A stretch of DNA of 64,000 nucleotides from Bacteroidales bacterium (GTDB lineage: Bacteria; Bacteroidota; Bacteroidia; Bacteroidales; Azobacteroidaceae), in the NCBI GenBank assembly GCA_031553755.1, contig JAVBKZ010000021.1, positions 28,251 through 92,250 of the forward strand. The letters are read 5' to 3'. The notes beneath the pieces were generated by a model, which worked only from the letters and a program-made list of their open reading frames with translations, was not told the origin of the DNA and did not search any database. This document shows positions 35,519-61,279 of the stretch, one piece after another. Position 1 is the stretch's first letter. Each line of letters begins with the position of its first letter. The position numbers and the translations under genes are program-made.

Positions 35519-35537
35519 TTAACCCATTAATTAACCC
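35519..35537 (+). promoter_or_regulatory. Heptamer direct repeat TTAACCC-ATTAA-TTAACCC (candidate activator operator)
   Basis: Two exact TTAACCC heptamers whose starts are 12 nt apart. The repeat ends 22 nt upstream of the -7-like box AAAATTTG (35560-35567). The same 19-mer, with one spacer change, occurs at 58699-58717. Confidence 0.6.
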
Positions 35538-35634
35538 TATTGAAGTTATAATTGAACAGAAAATTTGTATTGAATTAATAATATTCATAAAGGTTGTAAC
35601 CTTAATGGTAATTTTTTATTGTCATTTTTACAGA

Positions 35635-35651
35635 GTTAACATAAGGGTTAA
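35635..35651 (-). promoter_or_regulatory. Inverted, partially conserved third copy of the TTAACCC-N5-TTAAC motif
   Basis: The reverse complement of 35635-35651 reads TTAACCC-TTATG-TTAAC, with the same 12-nt register. It lies 60-76 nt upstream of the ATG at 35711. Confidence 0.4.
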
Positions 35652-35710
35652 ATCTGATATAATTGTCAATTGATTAAAAAAATAATGAATAATCTAAATA
35701 ATAAAATATC

Positions 35711-56090: not shown

Positions 56091-58616
56091 ATGTTTGGAA
56101 AAAAATACATAATACTTATAATTATCCTGTTATATTCTTTTCATTTGTTTTCGAAGAAACAAATTAATGGACTTTTGTTCTCTTCAAGCGAGGAAAGAAT
56201 AAATGATCGTACCTCTTTGATTTTATTTGACGATAGTCCTTTGAAATTGAAAGATGCTTTTCGAATTGATTTCGATTTAGCGATATGGGATATTAAACAG
56301 TTTGGCTATATACTACGGATAATAAACGAAAATAAGCAAGAGATTAATTTTTCGTTTGTGAATTTCTATGGTGAAGATAAAATTTATTTAGATTTTCATA
56401 GCCCGATAACACACGAATCTGTTCAAATACCATTTTCGGTACAAGACATTGAGGAAAAACGTTGGTTGCCAATCAGCATTATTTTCGATCTTAAAAAAGA
56501 TCGGGCTGAGGTTGTCTCAAAAGACTCTTCTTATATATGTAAATCGATCGGTTTGCAAAATCCCTCCCGCATAAAATTGGCTTTTGGATTATACGGACTC
56601 AATTTGGATGTACCACAAATGGCAATCCGGGATATTCGGATTGGAGAAGTAGGTGGAAGAATACACAACGTTCCCTTGGATGGATTAAGGAACGAAATTG
56701 TACATGATGACAATGGCAAGGTAAGAGGGATTTCTAAAAATCCTAAGTGGTTGGTATATAAACATTATTATTGGGAAGAGAAAGCTGTATTTGAATCCGA
56801 CCCTACTACCGGAATAGCTTATGATTCGAGCCGGAATAATGTTATTGTAGTAGATAAAGATGCTATCTTCAGCTATTCGATGAGATATGATAATGAAAGA
56901 AAAGTTCTCATAAAAGATTTTCCTTTCGCGTTGAATTCGGGTGAAGCTATTTATGATGATAAAACGAACTTGTTGTATGTCTATAATTTAGAACAAAAAA
57001 CGCCGGATAGCCCAACTATGGCTATTATCAATATGGTAAATAATAAAATAGAATATAAACATGCCTCCATGAGTCACCGTCTATATCATCACAATGCTTT
57101 TATGGGCACTGAAAAAAAAGGTTTTTATATTTTCGGAGGTTATGGCAATCATTCATATTCGAATAAAATATTAAAATATAACATTCAAACAGATAGTTGG
57201 GAACAAGTGGATTTTACCGGAGATGAAATATATTCCCGATACTTTTCAGCCTCAGGTCAAGGGAAAGAGCCATCGCAAATATTGATTATGGGTGGAATAG
57301 GAAACGAATCCGGTAAACAAGAACATGGAGGACGGCATTTGTCTGATTTGTTTTCATTAGATATCGAAACAAAACAGGTAAAAAAGATATGGGATATAAA
57401 AGATGTCCATTCGGGTTTTGTTCCTTGTAGTAATTTGATACTCAGTGAAGACAGTACACATTTTTTTACTCTATGTTATCCACAGCATGAAGTAAATTCA
57501 ACATTGCAATTATATAAATTCCGACTTTCCGATGGAAGCTATGAAGTTGTAAGTGATACGATTCATATCAATGCGGAACAAATGGAAACATCAGTTTATT
57601 TGTTCTATAATAAACAATTGAAAGAATTTTATACTGTTATCAGAGAAAATAATGTGGATAGAAAAGCAAAAATATTGATATATTCACTCTTGTCTCCTCC
57701 CGTAAATTTTTCAGAATTAAAATCAGAAGAAAATCAGTCAATATTTTATTGGGTTCTATTTTCATCTTTATTTCTTATAATCGCTATATCAGCCATCGTG
57801 TTATTGTTACGGAAAAAAAGACGTAGAACGGAATTATTGGCCTTGTTAGAAAAAAATTATCAGGAGGAAAAAAAGTCTCAATCAAAAAAAGAAGTAGATA
57901 AGAAAAATGCGATTTTTATTTTTGGAAATTTTGCTGTGTATGATAAAAATAACAGAGAAATAAGTTATCGGTTTAGCTCGAAATTAAAATCGCTTTTCGC
58001 GTTGATACTTTTTTACAGTATTGAAGATGATGGAGTTTCAACGGATATGATGTCTTTTTCATTGTGGCCGGACAAAGACCTTAACGGCGCAAAAAATACA
58101 AGAGGAGTCACAATTAACAGACTGAGAAATATTCTTGCTGATATTTCAGGGATAACGCTGTTTCATCAAAACTCTAAATGGTATTTCTCATTTGATTCTG
58201 ATTTCTATTGTGATTATTTAGAATACCGGAAAAGTATCAAAAATATTAAAAAAGAAATGATCGATGAAGATGAGTGTATGTCTAATTTGTCGGATATAAT
58301 AAACAGAGGACCCTTTTTCCAAAATATACAGGAAGATTGGATTGATAGTTACAAACATGAATATGAGAGTGAAATAGAAAATATACTTTGGAATTATATA
58401 GTCAAATTAAATGAAAGCAAAAAATATGTGAAAGTAATTGAGTATTCTGAATTATATTTCATCATAGATTCCTTGAATGAAGATGTTCTTAGACTATGTA
58501 TACATGCCATGCAAAAAATAGGCAAAAAAGAGCAAGCTATTACACTGTATAATAAATTTGTTGCGAATTATAAAAAATTAATGGGAGAAGACCCGATTTT
58601 ATCTCAACCAATGTAA
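56091..58616 (+). CDS. Membrane-spanning one-component regulator: periplasmic lectin-like + Kelch-type sensor, one TM helix, cytoplasmic OmpR/SARP-type winged helix + BTAD-like domain
   Basis: The ORF opens with a TTG at 56082; the ATG at 56091 is preferred. N-terminal anchor KKYIILIIILLYSFHLF. ConA/LamG-like segment (INGLLFSS..FRIDFDLAIW..LAFGLYG). Kelch-like repeats (FYIFGGYGNHSYSNKILKYNIQTDSWEQV, ILIMGGIGNESG..LSDLFSLDIETKQVKKIW). TM helix IFYWVLFSSLFLIIAISAIVLLL followed by RKKRRR. wHTH-like IFIFGNFAVYDKNNREI..LKSLFALILFYS..VSTDMMSFSLWPD..TRGVTINRLRNIL. Helical BTAD-like end (..LRLCIHAMQKIGKKEQAITLYNKFVANYKKLMGEDP). Confidence 0.65.
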   Translation: MFGKKYIILIIILLYSFHLFSKKQINGLLFSSSEERINDRTSLILFDDSPLKLKDAFRIDFDLAIWDIKQFGYILRIINENKQEINFSFVNFYGEDKIYLDFHSPITHESVQIPFSVQDIEEKRWLPISIIFDLKKDRAEVVSKDSSYICKSIGLQNPSRIKLAFGLYGLNLDVPQMAIRDIRIGEVGGRIHNVPLDGLRNEIVHDDNGKVRGISKNPKWLVYKHYYWEEKAVFESDPTTGIAYDSSRNNVIVVDKDAIFSYSMRYDNERKVLIKDFPFALNSGEAIYDDKTNLLYVYNLEQKTPDSPTMAIINMVNNKIEYKHASMSHRLYHHNAFMGTEKKGFYIFGGYGNHSYSNKILKYNIQTDSWEQVDFTGDEIYSRYFSASGQGKEPSQILIMGGIGNESGKQEHGGRHLSDLFSLDIETKQVKKIWDIKDVHSGFVPCSNLILSEDSTHFFTLCYPQHEVNSTLQLYKFRLSDGSYEVVSDTIHINAEQMETSVYLFYNKQLKEFYTVIRENNVDRKAKILIYSLLSPPVNFSELKSEENQSIFYWVLFSSLFLIIAISAIVLLLRKKRRRTELLALLEKNYQEEKKSQSKKEVDKKNAIFIFGNFAVYDKNNREISYRFSSKLKSLFALILFYSIEDDGVSTDMMSFSLWPDKDLNGAKNTRGVTINRLRNILADISGITLFHQNSKWYFSFDSDFYCDYLEYRKSIKNIKKEMIDEDECMSNLSDIINRGPFFQNIQEDWIDSYKHEYESEIENILWNYIVKLNESKKYVKVIEYSELYFIIDSLNEDVLRLCIHAMQKIGKKEQAITLYNKFVANYKKLMGEDPILSQPM

Positions 58617-58698
58617 AAAAATATTTATATATCAACACGCTTGCTATTTTTGTGAAAAATATCATAAAATAGCCGGATTAATGTTTTTTAAGAGTTTA

Positions 58699-58798: not shown

Positions 58799-61279
58799 AT
58801 GAAAAAAAATCTTCCAATTTTATTATTAAGCATCATTTTGCTTATCTCATGCGGAAACAACAAATGTGAATTTGTTAAAAATGATTTGCGAGCTCCGGCT
58901 TATCCGCTTATTACGATTGACCCTTACACAAGTGGATGGTCATTTACGGATAATTTGTATGATGGATCAGTGAAACACTGGACAGGGAAGGACTTTCCTT
59001 TAATCGGACAAATAAAGGTAGATGGAGAAACTTATCGTTTCATGGGAATTGAAGAATTGGAATTGAATCCGCTCGTGCCGACTTCGGAACAAGGTGACTG
59101 GAGTGGAAAATATACAGAATCTAAACCGGCTAACGACTGGATCAAAAATAATTTTGATGATTCGAAATGGAAAAGCGCGAAAGGCGCTTTTGGTACTACG
59201 CACAATGAACCTACATCGAAAACACATTGGGAATCAGAACATATATGGATAAGACGTGCAGTTACTATTGACCAGGATTTGAAAGGAAAAAACATATATC
59301 TTGAATATTCAAACGATGATGGCGCTGAATTTTATATCAATGGAATTTTGGCTTTTGAAACCGGAAATACTTGTAACAAAAATAAAATGGCGAAACTTTC
59401 TCCCGAAGTTGTGAACTCGCTTGTTGTGGGAGAAAACCTTATCACGGCGCATTGTCATAATCCGGTAGCTAACGGATTAATTGATTTTGGATTATTGGTC
59501 GAAAAAGAAAAACAAAACGCCATGAAACAAACCGCGGTTCAGAAATCAGTAGATGTTCAGGCGATGCAAACCCGTTACAAATTCACTTGTGGAACTGTAG
59601 ATTTGAATTTGACTTTCACTGCTCCGCTGTTTATGAACAATTTAGATTTAATGACTCGTCCGGTAAACTATATTACTTATGAAGTAATTTCGAATGATAA
59701 ACAAGCGCATGAAGTAGAAATTTATTTTGAAGCGTCTCCTCAATGGGCGTTAGATCAACCATATCAACAAGCAGTCAGTGAGCGTTTTGAAGAAGATGGT
59801 TTGGTATTTATGAAAACAGGAAGTGTCGACCAAAATGTCTTGGTTAAATTTGGCGATGATGTCCGTATAGATTGGGGATATTTTTATATGGCTTCCGAAA
59901 AAGAAAATACAAAAACCGACATTGGCAATGGCGAATCTTTAAGAAATGCTTTCATAAGTGGAAATTATAACAACAATACCAAAGGAGAAAATGAAAATGC
60001 GAAATTAGCATTGGTAAAAAAACTCGGAAAAACGAAACAATCTTCCGGAAAAATAATGATTGGTTATGACGATATTTATTCCATTCAATACTTCGGAGAA
60101 AATTTACGTCCTTATTGGAACCGCAATAACAACGAAACGATTCTTTCTCAATTCAAGAAAGCAAATAAGGAATATGAAAAATTGATGAAAGAATGTTGTG
60201 AGTTCGACAATGATTTAATGAAAAAAGCCACAGCGTCCGGAGGAAAGAAATATGCCGAACTTTGTGTTTTAGCATACCGTCAGGCAATTTCGGCTCACAA
60301 ATTAGTGCAAGCTCCTAATGGCGATTTATTATTCTTATCGAAAGAAAATAATAGCAATGGTTCTATCGGAACAGTAGATATCACATATCCATCTGCTCCT
60401 TTATTCCTGTGTTACAATATTGAGTTAGCTAAAGGATTGATGAATCATATTTTTTATTACAGTGAAAGTGGAAAATGGGCCAAGCCTTTTCCTTCTCATG
60501 ATGTAGGTACTTACCCTCGTGCAAACGGACAAACTTATGGAGGAGATATGCCAGTGGAAGAATCCGGAAATATGTTGATATTGGCCGGCGTTATTGCCAA
60601 GTTGGAAGGAAATGCCGATTACGCGAAAAAACATTGGAATGTATTGTCGGTTTGGGCTGATTATTTGGCGGAAAAAGGATTAGATCCGGAAAATCAACTT
60701 TGTACGGATGACTTTGCCGGACACTTCGCGCACAATACCAACCTTTCTATTAAAGCCATTTTAGGAGTAGCTTCTTATGGTCATCTGGCAGATATGCTCG
60801 GAGATAAATCAGTTGCTGAGAAATATATTTCAAAAGCTCGTGAAATGGCGCAGGAATGGGCTAAAATGTCGGATGATGGAGATCATTACAGACTGACTTT
60901 TGATAAGCCCGGAACATGGAGCCAAAAATATAATCTTGTTTGGGATAAATTGCTTAAATACGACATTTTCCCGAAAGAAATAGCTGAAAAAGAAATAAAA
61001 TATTATCTCACGAAACAAAATCAATATGGTTTGCCGCTCGACAATAGAGAAAGCTATACAAAAGCCGACTGGATTATATGGACTGCTACCATGGCGAATG
61101 ACAATGCTACTTTTGAGAAATTTATAGATCCGCTTTATTTATTTATGAATGAAACAAAAGATCGCATTCCTATGTCTGATTGGGTATTCACGGATAAACC
61201 CTATCATCGCGGTTTTCGTGCGCGTTCGGTTGTAGGCGGATACTACATAAAAATGCTTGAAGAAAAATTAATGAAATAA
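58799..61279 (+). CDS. DUF4965/DUF5127/DUF1793 (glutaminase-A-like) lipoprotein, paralog of 53537-56050
   Basis: The ORF opens at 58775; the ATG at 58799 gives MKKNLPILLLSIILLISCGNN (lipobox). Colinear with 53537-56050 over the whole length (LRAPAYPLITIDPYTSGW, IWIRRAVTI..YLEYSNDDGAEFYINGI, YPSAPLFLCYN, VEESGNMLILAGVIA, YNLVWDK, YGLPLDNRESYTKADWIIW). Confidence 0.7.
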   Translation: MKKNLPILLLSIILLISCGNNKCEFVKNDLRAPAYPLITIDPYTSGWSFTDNLYDGSVKHWTGKDFPLIGQIKVDGETYRFMGIEELELNPLVPTSEQGDWSGKYTESKPANDWIKNNFDDSKWKSAKGAFGTTHNEPTSKTHWESEHIWIRRAVTIDQDLKGKNIYLEYSNDDGAEFYINGILAFETGNTCNKNKMAKLSPEVVNSLVVGENLITAHCHNPVANGLIDFGLLVEKEKQNAMKQTAVQKSVDVQAMQTRYKFTCGTVDLNLTFTAPLFMNNLDLMTRPVNYITYEVISNDKQAHEVEIYFEASPQWALDQPYQQAVSERFEEDGLVFMKTGSVDQNVLVKFGDDVRIDWGYFYMASEKENTKTDIGNGESLRNAFISGNYNNNTKGENENAKLALVKKLGKTKQSSGKIMIGYDDIYSIQYFGENLRPYWNRNNNETILSQFKKANKEYEKLMKECCEFDNDLMKKATASGGKKYAELCVLAYRQAISAHKLVQAPNGDLLFLSKENNSNGSIGTVDITYPSAPLFLCYNIELAKGLMNHIFYYSESGKWAKPFPSHDVGTYPRANGQTYGGDMPVEESGNMLILAGVIAKLEGNADYAKKHWNVLSVWADYLAEKGLDPENQLCTDDFAGHFAHNTNLSIKAILGVASYGHLADMLGDKSVAEKYISKAREMAQEWAKMSDDGDHYRLTFDKPGTWSQKYNLVWDKLLKYDIFPKEIAEKEIKYYLTKQNQYGLPLDNRESYTKADWIIWTATMANDNATFEKFIDPLYLFMNETKDRIPMSDWVFTDKPYHRGFRARSVVGGYYIKMLEEKLMK

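Follow-up and report, generated by a model that had tools for sequence, protein, structure and literature searches.

In a 64,000-nucleotide stretch of contig JAVBKZ010000021.1 (assembly GCA_031553755.1) from a Bacteroidales bacterium of the Azobacteroidaceae, herein the window, we find two arrays of heptameric direct repeats and propose that they are the operators of a regulator encoded in the same gene cluster (56082 through 58616, plus strand). The predicted regulator is a membrane-tethered Kelch-SARP activator of polysaccharide-utilization genes, which would bind the arrays, activate transcription from them, and control its own gene as well; we put the probability of this reading at roughly 0.8. 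A preliminary description of the same DNA had suggested an activator site of direct heptamers abutting the −33/−35 region, used by a SARP-like regulator. The core of that suggestion is strongly supported by linkage across genomes, by the fold of the regulator, and by the geometry of the promoters; its choice of −7 box, its number of heptamers, and the parts it assigned to an inverted copy and a hairpin in the leader are revised below.

The window is AT-rich (37% G+C), and the exact pattern TTAACCC-N5-TTAACCC occurs in it twice, at 35519 through 35537 (site 1) and 58699 through 58717 (site 2), both times in intergenic DNA at the head of a plus-strand transcription unit. The two exact heptamers first noticed at site 1 are present, and the 20-mer that contains them (ATTAACCCATTAATTAACCC, 35518 through 35537) recurs as described at 58698 through 58717 (ATTAACCCATTATTTAACCC), with one spacer base changed and 21 nt before the box TATATTTG. 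A single TTAACCC heptamer is not enriched in the window (9 copies vs. 10.9 expected). The bipartite pattern with up to one mismatch has three matches for 0.04 expected, a count reached by none of 100 shuffles, and with up to two mismatches it has three for 0.64 expected. Pairs of 20-mers differing by at most one base number only nine across the window, and most of the others fall within or between coding regions, for example between two paralogous GtaA-like genes. In a scan of the whole window, a three-heptamer weight matrix, partly trained on these two sites, scores site 1 at 31.2 bits and site 2 at 30.7 bits; the next best match reaches 14.2 bits, and shuffled sequence gives 10.5 to 20.0 bits.

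Each array consists of three direct heptamers, one more than the preliminary description had counted. At site 1, TTAATCT (H1′, 35508 through 35514) is followed at periods of 11 and 12 nt by the two heptamers noted earlier, both TTAACCC (H2′, 35519 through 35525; H3′, 35531 through 35537). At site 2, two TTAACCC heptamers (H1, 58699 through 58705; H2, 58711 through 58717) precede GTAATAC (H3, 58723 through 58729) at periods of 12 and 12 nt. The degenerate member is thus the distal one at site 1 and the proximal one at site 2, and the architecture is otherwise shared. All six heptamers lie on the plus strand, and a further one is inverted upstream of each array, starting 24 nt before the first direct heptamer: at site 1 it occupies 35484 through 35490 on the minus strand (TGATTAC on the plus strand, reverse complement GTAATCA) and at site 2 it occupies 58675 through 58681 (GGATTAA, reverse complement TTAATCC). 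On the other side, 9 nt separate the last heptamer from a plus-strand box of the form TAnn(A/T)TTG, which is TATAATTG at site 1 (35547 through 35554) and TATATTTG at site 2 (58739 through 58746). The latter is a perfect Bacteroidetes sigma-A box and the former has one mismatch. Since that box, TAnnTTTG, occupies −12 to −5 (PMC9723704), the heptamers are predicted to lie at approximately −52 to −46, −40 to −34 (H2′ and H2), and −28 to −22 (H3′ and H3), where they cover the place of the missing −33 element: no TTTG stands at the −33 position of either site, and the heptamers fill that stretch. Judged by sequence, a −7 box lacking a −33 TTTG fits an activator-dependent promoter, with transcription starts predicted near 35559 and 58751.

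Both arrays are conserved in orthologous loci of three other Bacteroidales genomes (L001, L003, and L004), whose regulators are 60 to 65% identical to that of the window. L001, a Joint Genome Institute (JGI) contig with a regulator 63% identical, has the exact bipartite pattern at both orthologous places, once before the orthologue of the first gene of the site 1 unit and once just after the regulator gene. L003, which carries the closest regulator found among the genome contigs (65% identity), and L004 are arranged alike, except that the middle heptamer of site 1 is GTAACCC in L004 and the H1-H2 period of site 2 is 11 nt in L003; a further 11-kb contig, L002, is identical to the window across the regulator region. 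In four-genome alignments of the two intergenic regions, conservation is confined to the inverted heptamer, the direct heptamers, and the −7 box. TTAATC of H1′ and GTAATA of H3 are invariant, the inverted heptamer of site 1 sits inside the invariant block (G)ATTACAA.ATT, and ATTAAT followed by TTTTT is conserved upstream of site 2. At site 1, TA..ATTG is likewise invariant and always lies 9 nt past the last heptamer. The −7 box had earlier been placed at AAAATTTG (35560 through 35567, plus strand), 22 nt after the repeat; this candidate is not conserved in L001, L003, or L004 and its first base is not T, so that it is probably not a promoter box. The invariance of TTAATC and TA..ATTG, together with the lack of conservation of AAAATTTG, fixes the register of site 1. 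Conservation at orthologous positions and, as shown below, across classes of the phylum effectively refutes the idea that the arrays are a functionless chance recurrence or the remnant of a local duplication. AT-rich intergenic DNA does yield short repeats, and the lone heptamer is not enriched, but the excess of bipartite matches over expectation and the unrelated flanks of the two sites, which argue against duplication, leave this explanation with negligible probability.

The leader of site 1 contains an inverted bipartite copy (TTAACCC-TTATG-TTAACTC, 35633 through 35651, minus strand) with one mismatch. At 0.04 such matches expected per window it is real, statistically unusual, and unlikely to be due to chance. 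It is absent from the leaders of L001 and L003, L004 has only a lone GGGTTAC, and no −7 box stands in the proper register on the minus strand. Because two of the three orthologous leaders lack the copy, the earlier notion of a promoter bracketed by a forward and an inverted copy is not supported, although the copy itself was correctly seen; the conserved inverted element is instead the heptamer upstream of the array. The near-identical copies at 35519 through 35537 and 35633 through 35651, approximately 95 nt apart, flank promoter-like sequence, and invertible promoters are common in Bacteroidales, so they might be read as recombination sites of an invertible promoter segment. We consider this very unlikely, because the inverted copy lacks conservation and the neighboring open reading frames (ORFs) that were scanned revealed no recombinase domain. 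Only 14 specified bases match while the spacers differ, a DDE transposase fragment 12 kb away is the sole mobile-element gene noted in the window, the forward copy is accounted for by the operator architecture, and site 58699 has no inverted partner.

Other features of this leader are minor. The small hairpin AAGGTT-gta-AACCTT (35590 through 35604, plus strand) with its T-run is present, as noted before, but is neither terminator-like nor unusually stable: a terminator scan of the leader returned no terminator-like site, the leader folds no better than shuffles (minimum free energy z-score −0.32), and the hairpin is not conserved in the four-genome alignment, so that a function for it lacks support. 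Rfam assigns no family between 35100 and 35800 beyond the tRNA and one below-threshold match overlapping it. A second TATAATTG occurs at 35656 through 35663, 4 nt past the inverted pair, and 35636 through 35663 agrees with the sigma-70-like pattern TTGACA-16-TATAAT at 11 of 12 bases and has a TG upstream; this second box might give the regulator-containing operon a basal promoter.

The regulator gene, the last of the site 1 unit, has 844 codons counted from a TTG, with a likely ATG at 56091. Its product comprises an N-terminal hydrophobic helix, a β-sandwich (residues 31 through 220), a Kelch propeller (residues 232 through 537; assigned by Pfam and by Kelch fold matches), a transmembrane helix (approximately residues 554 through 596) followed by RKKRRR (to approximately residue 601), and a C-terminal SARP-type module of 225 residues (610 through 834) made up of a winged helix and a BTAD domain. 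The full-length model has a predicted local distance difference test score (pLDDT) of 83.7; modeled alone, the C-terminal domain reaches 90.3, with a predicted template modeling score (pTM) of 0.83. The winged helix (residues 610 through 704) shows β-strands, three helices, and a wing hairpin, and the helical bundle that follows directly (BTAD, residues 711 through 834) superposes on AfsR and EmbR. At E < 1e-3, Foldseek returns only the SARP domains of AfsR (Protein Data Bank [PDB]: 8hvr, 8k60) and EmbR (2fez, 2ff4), with alignments of 240 to 248 columns, a template modeling (TM) score of ∼0.6, and 13 to 15% identity. Model and Foldseek matches together define a predicted cytoplasmic SARP-like DNA-binding and activation domain encoded at 57909 through 58583 (plus strand). 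The SARP-like regulator proposed earlier for this cluster is therefore confirmed at the level of fold and architecture; similarity to characterized SARPs is not significant in sequence and becomes visible only in the fold. As modeled, the regulator is a single-chain, membrane-spanning one-component protein with the β-sandwich and Kelch propeller in the periplasm and the SARP module in the cytoplasm. Among the plus-strand cluster proteins that were scanned, no other transcription-factor domain was found.

Proteins of this kind form a sizeable family, with 216 matches in Bacteroidales, Sphingobacteriales, and Chitinophagales. With a profile built from the cytoplasmic domain, 896 clusters are collected at 50% identity (E ≤ 1e-30); almost all measure ∼800 to 880 residues and have the domain at the C terminus. 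The Pfam BTAD model matches 13 of 19 family members (best E 3e-6). A fold search with the full-length model retrieves generic Kelch propellers only and gives no clue to a ligand. The recognition helix, AKN(T/I)(R/K)GVT(I/F)N(R/H)LR, hardly varies and does not clearly covary with the use of TTAACCC or GTAACCC.

To the conservation among close relatives is added a linkage of motif and regulator across the phylum. We assembled 81 regulator loci from a genome collection, one genome per species, chosen through the regulator; they include Mucilaginibacter, Pedobacter, Puia, and Dinghuibacter, with regulators only 30 to 33% identical to that of the window. TAACCC-N6-TAACCC with at most one mismatch lies on the plus strand within 1.5 kb past the regulator stop codon in 53 of the 81, and the remaining 1.48 Mb of the loci hold 35 such matches on both strands, an enrichment near the regulator of ∼39-fold. 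The three-heptamer matrix, at 22 bits or more, finds a site in 60 loci (66 matches). Downstream matches number 56, every one on the plus strand and none on the minus strand; upstream there are 5 that run in the same direction and 4 that diverge, and a single match falls inside the regulator gene. All 65 matches outside the regulator gene are thus on the strand pointing away from it. In the reciprocal direction, a metagenome collection scanned for TTAACCC-N5-TTAACCC-N5-KTAATAY returned 61 loci, and a regulator homolog ends 68 to 917 nt upstream of the motif, on the same strand, in 41 of the 54 testable ones. The other 13, and 7 loci too short for testing, have the same extended promoter architecture; the likeliest reading is that they, like site 1, are additional promoters of the regulon. 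The motif therefore travels with regulator homologs across three classes of Bacteroidota (Bacteroidia, Sphingobacteriia, and Chitinophagia).

This linkage is correlative, and 13 of 54 metagenomic sites stand without a regulator gene nearby; another factor, such as an alternative sigma factor or a global carbohydrate regulator, might thus recognize the conserved block while the Kelch-SARP gene merely travels with it, and a FecR-type anti-sigma gene is indeed encoded elsewhere in the window (22124 through 23152). We regard this as unlikely. The downstream box is of the sigma-A type TAnnTTTG rather than an extracytoplasmic function (ECF)-type promoter, three phased direct repeats are typical of winged-helix activators, and the regulator is the only gene common to the motif-bearing loci of the three classes. 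Sites without an adjacent regulator are expected in regulons with several promoters, and site 1 itself lies 20 kb from the regulator gene.

A family consensus was derived from 99 nonredundant sites, numbered from the first base of H1. It reads GGTTAAT at −22 to −16 (inverted), an A/T tract, TTAACCC at 0 to 6, TTAACCC at 12 to 18, TTAATAC at 24 to 30, and tAtnaTTG at 40 to 47. GGTTA is located 21 to 30 nt upstream of H1 in 77 of 92 sites, and 44 sites have 21 nt between H2 and the box (TAnnnTTG), with 7 having 20 nt. A Paludibacter-like clade uses GTAACCC, and in a few cases (e.g., L003, L006, L017, and L079) the period is 11 nt or the repeats exceed three.

Several motif-like sequences were seen beside these sites. 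A second upstream inverted GGTTAAT stands 31 to 40 nt before H1 in 39 of 92 sites (Sphingobacteriia and Chitinophagia), and a GGTTTAACC-like element occurs in the transcribed leader at +70 to +89 (e.g., L091, L099, and L125); together they suggest extra protomer sites or a leader element. Copies of TAACC in Mucilaginibacter leaders were considered as operators and rejected, as they adjoin the susC start codon and look like leader conservation. A recurrent near-match, TTAACCTGTTTTTTAACCC, with one or two mismatches, falls inside the regulator coding sequence of Mucilaginibacter loci (e.g., L022, L024, L025, L026, and L032, near 11480) and probably reflects a conserved peptide (..INLFFNP..) rather than an operator.

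The genes that follow the arrays point to their function. A susC-like gene follows within 1.5 kb after 76 of 80 sites from Sphingobacteriia and Chitinophagia (by Pfam for L032). In Bacteroidales-like loci, GtaA-like and glycoside hydrolase family 92 (GH92) genes (e.g., in L010 and L017) or susC/D genes come after the site. From these neighbors the protein appears to be a regulator of polysaccharide-utilization loci (PULs). As a hint from the gene content, GH92 and GtaA-like genes may indicate mannose-containing glycans, e.g., of fungi, as the substrate.

SARPs recognize direct repeats whose period is 11 or 22 bp, with 8 bp between the 3′ repeat and the −10 element, and some of their sites contain three heptamers; the afs box bound by AfsR spans −40 to −19 and overlaps the −35 element, and two SARP protomers side by side touch sigma region 4, the β flap tip helix, the β′ zinc-binding domain, and the α C-terminal domain (PMC10936776, PMC10972967). 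H2 and H3 of the arrays described here coincide with the positions of the two AfsR repeats. On the basis of this rule and of the heptamer register, we propose that tethered SARP domains come together on the array and bring RNA polymerase to the promoter. A glycan-derived signal would be sensed outside the cytoplasm; several SARP domains would bind head-to-tail to three direct heptamers, [T/G]TAA[C/T][C/A]C, 11 to 12 nt apart; and the bound protomers would, by analogy with AfsR, keep RNA polymerase and sigma-A region 4 in place where the promoter has no upstream element of its own, and thereby activate transcription. Site 2 would drive the glycan-degradation genes downstream of it (GtaA-like and GH92 here, susC/susD operons in relatives), and site 1 would drive a long operon. 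As that operon ends with the regulator gene, positive autoregulation is proposed. What the analysis shows is the motif with its conservation and geometry, its linkage to the regulator family, and the fold of the domain; that the protein binds, that it activates instead of repressing, how many protomers take part, what the signal is, and where transcription starts are what we infer in this scheme.

A repressor or dual regulator could occupy the same arrays, and the same protein would then keep RNA polymerase off −52 to −22 until a signal arrives. The arrays do overlap the core promoter, and looping or a roadblock could be aided by the extra inverted heptamers, which lie upstream of both arrays and in the leader of site 1. 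Characterized SARPs, however, are activators at exactly this position (PMC10936776, PMC10972967), the −7 box lacks a −33 TTTG as expected of activator-dependent promoters, and the direct repeats keep a fixed orientation to the −7 box, which fits oriented contacts with RNA polymerase. We therefore think that repression is quite unlikely.

A number of observations weigh against the proposal of a Kelch-SARP activator acting at these arrays. The link between motif and protein is one of adjacency and fold analogy, and the counts that document it come from related genomes, which are not independent samples, are dominated by Mucilaginibacter, and describe loci that were found through the regulator. 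As many as 21 of the 81 regulator loci have no array within 10 kb, including a whole group of Mucilaginibacter paralogues. At the level of the protein, Pfam Trans_reg_C matches are weak (9 of 19 family members, best E 0.014), BTAD in the window's own protein stays below the Pfam cutoff (E 0.006 to 0.017), and the cytoplasmic-domain profile run against PDB sequences finds only (designed) TPR proteins and no SARP. At the level of the DNA, the period of the arrays is mostly 12 nt rather than the classical 11 nt, the difference between clades in T or G at heptamer position 1 maps to no obvious change in the recognition helix, and a site overlapping the core promoter could in principle repress.

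The SARP operators of Streptomyces are textbook knowledge, and the comparison with them is close in several respects. The SARPs AfsR, ActII-ORF4, DnrI, and PimR share the order of an OmpR-type winged helix followed by BTAD (AfsR being the best structural match), sites of two or three heptameric direct repeats about one helical turn apart that overlap the upstream promoter element, and a fixed short distance from the 3′ repeat to the −10/−7 element (8 bp published, 9 nt here). They differ in belonging to Actinobacteria and to antibiotic clusters, whereas the present system is from Bacteroidota and stands beside glycan-utilization genes. Their SARP domain is N-terminal in a soluble protein, whereas here it is C-terminal, behind a transmembrane helix and a periplasmic Kelch sensor. 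Their repeats are TCGAGCG or CGGCAAG at an 11-nt period, compared with TTAACCC at mostly 12 nt, and the partner promoter here is of the Bacteroidetes −33/−7 type; identity to AfsR and EmbR is as low as 13 to 15%. EmbR of Mycobacterium tuberculosis also joins a SARP-type winged helix and BTAD to an extra signal-input domain (2fez, E ∼6e-6), but its input comes through a cytoplasmic FHA domain and Ser/Thr kinases, and it has neither a membrane span nor a periplasmic sensor. ToxR/CadC-type proteins, taken here with PhoB/OmpR boxes from general knowledge of these families, offer a membrane-tethered winged helix and a periplasmic sensor in one chain, and tandem direct repeats near −35; in the Kelch-SARP protein, by contrast, the sensor is N-terminal and the DNA-binding domain C-terminal, BTAD is present, and there is no receiver and no phosphorylation.

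Current accounts of PUL regulation in Bacteroidota invoke hybrid two-component systems, SusR-like proteins, and pairs of ECF sigma and anti-sigma factors. These regulators resemble the Kelch-SARP protein in that an envelope-spanning sensor is encoded beside the susC/susD or glycoside hydrolase genes that it controls or, for Kelch-SARP, is predicted to control (PMC7641319), but their DNA-binding module and sensor are not those of Kelch-SARP. A single sentence of that review lists “SARP-OmpR” as a regulator class in predicted PULs, citing automatic PUL prediction (PMC7641319). The full-text literature, in which subscription journals are incompletely covered, yielded no characterized member, operator, mechanism, or Kelch-transmembrane-SARP architecture, and literature matches to TTAACCC were only PCR primers. 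As far as we found, then, what is new is that the SARP fold and operator logic occur in another phylum, combined with an architecture, targets, and a heptamer not described before.

We lean toward a broader view, in which Kelch-SARP proteins would be a fourth, uncharacterized class of envelope-spanning PUL regulators in Bacteroidota that activate −33-less promoters from the membrane through SARP domains assembled on an array. The periplasmic glycan would be sensed by the β-sandwich and Kelch propeller, and three head-to-tail SARP domains would be joined by a fourth on the inverted upstream heptamer. Were this so, the “sigma adaptation” of SARPs would be ancient and would work with the very different sigma-A of Bacteroidota. 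More immediately, the SARP-OmpR class, so far only an annotation, gains a domain architecture and a proposed operator of ∼75 bp in a defined register to the −7 box, with a predicted regulon of GtaA-like, GH92, and susC/D genes plus autoregulation. One motif allows the regulon to be predicted in many genomes, and since cultivable Mucilaginibacter and Pedobacter (e.g., Mucilaginibacter sp. NFX135, locus L032, and Pedobacter sp. L105, locus L068) carry the same system, the prediction is directly testable. A repeat-to-promoter geometry shared by Actinobacteria and Bacteroidota bears on how SARPs engage RNA polymerase, and the regulator-operator pair could supply an orthogonal, signal-inducible promoter for engineering Bacteroidota.

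The two transcription units belong to a plus-strand cluster (35711 through 63728), and the window has the −7 box type and gene content of a Bacteroidales member. Site 1 lies, as the preliminary description had it, in the noncoding region between tRNA-Ser(GCT) (35133 through 35220) and this cluster, a gap of 490 nt before 35711. The genes it heads (35711 through 56050, plus strand) encode, in order, a 676-residue protein without an assigned family, a cadherin-like protein, a calpain-like peptidase, a GH31 protein, a TldD/PmbA-like pair, a purple acid phosphatase, a GH32 protein, and a GtaA-like protein, with the regulator last. As all gaps from 35711 to 58616 are at most 120 nt, site 1 is taken to head a unit that ends with the regulator gene. 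Type IX secretion system sorting tails are present on the GH31 protein, which also has carbohydrate-binding modules, and on the purple acid phosphatase; that of the cadherin-like protein is weak and below the NCBIfam cutoff. Directly after the tRNA gene, an AT-rich hairpin (aatcctgcaaattt/aaatttgtgggatt) followed by TTTTT (35236 through 35266) probably terminates tRNA-Ser transcription and would shield site 1 from transcripts entering from upstream; having few G-C pairs, it escaped the terminator scan.

The first gene after site 1 follows the array in all four genomes (window, 35711 through 37741; L001, 2579 through 4591; L003, 1771 through 3795; L004, 4016 through 6058). Its product is a conserved secreted protein of ∼675 residues with 76 to 80% identity among the four. 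Pfam and NCBIfam assign it to no family, and it shows faint GH88/LanC-like (α/α)6 hints (E ∼1e-3); it may be an undescribed glycoside hydrolase.

Site 2 occupies a 158-nt gap directly after the regulator gene (182 nt to the likely ATG at 58799) and heads the genes at 58799 through 63728 (plus strand), which encode a GtaA-like lipoprotein (likely ATG 58799, end 61279) and a protein of the GH92 α-mannosidase family (61416 through 63728). The regulator gene is thus flanked by paralogous GtaA-like genes with DUF4964, DUF5127, and a GtaA six-hairpin domain (53537 through 56050 and 58775 through 61279). Of 24 Bacteroidales-like loci, L001 through L021 among them, 19 have a GtaA-like gene immediately before the regulator, which makes the two a conserved gene pair; no publication on a bacterial representative of the group came up in a literature search under the GtaA-related DUF names.

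Twelve of the Mucilaginibacter regulator paralogues that lack an array (L037, at approximately 12610 through 12850; L038, L040, L041, L047, L049, L051, L055, L062, L063, L073, and L077) are followed by a highly conserved block of ∼230 nt with a perfect TATATTTG, a tRNA-like 3′ part (GGTTCGATTCC...CCCTGCA), and a terminator-like end. The block has no Rfam match at E ≤ 0.01 and no ARAGORN call; it looks like a small RNA gene.

A separate run of large ORFs on the minus strand (3176 through 23152) ends with the FecR-type anti-sigma gene, which adjoins the DDE transposase fragment (23265 through 23870); no heptamer array occurs between 3176 and 23870. Judged by size, the 1111- and 660-residue ORFs of this run (16704 through 22031) may be a susC/susD pair. 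The 24-mer AAATAAAAACTTTGTGACTTTGTG is found at 62 through 85 and 3097 through 3120, with at most one mismatch between copies. Read on the minus strand, it consists of two CACAAAGT units and then a T-run, and each copy stands a short way past the stop codon of a minus-strand gene, the two genes being consecutive.

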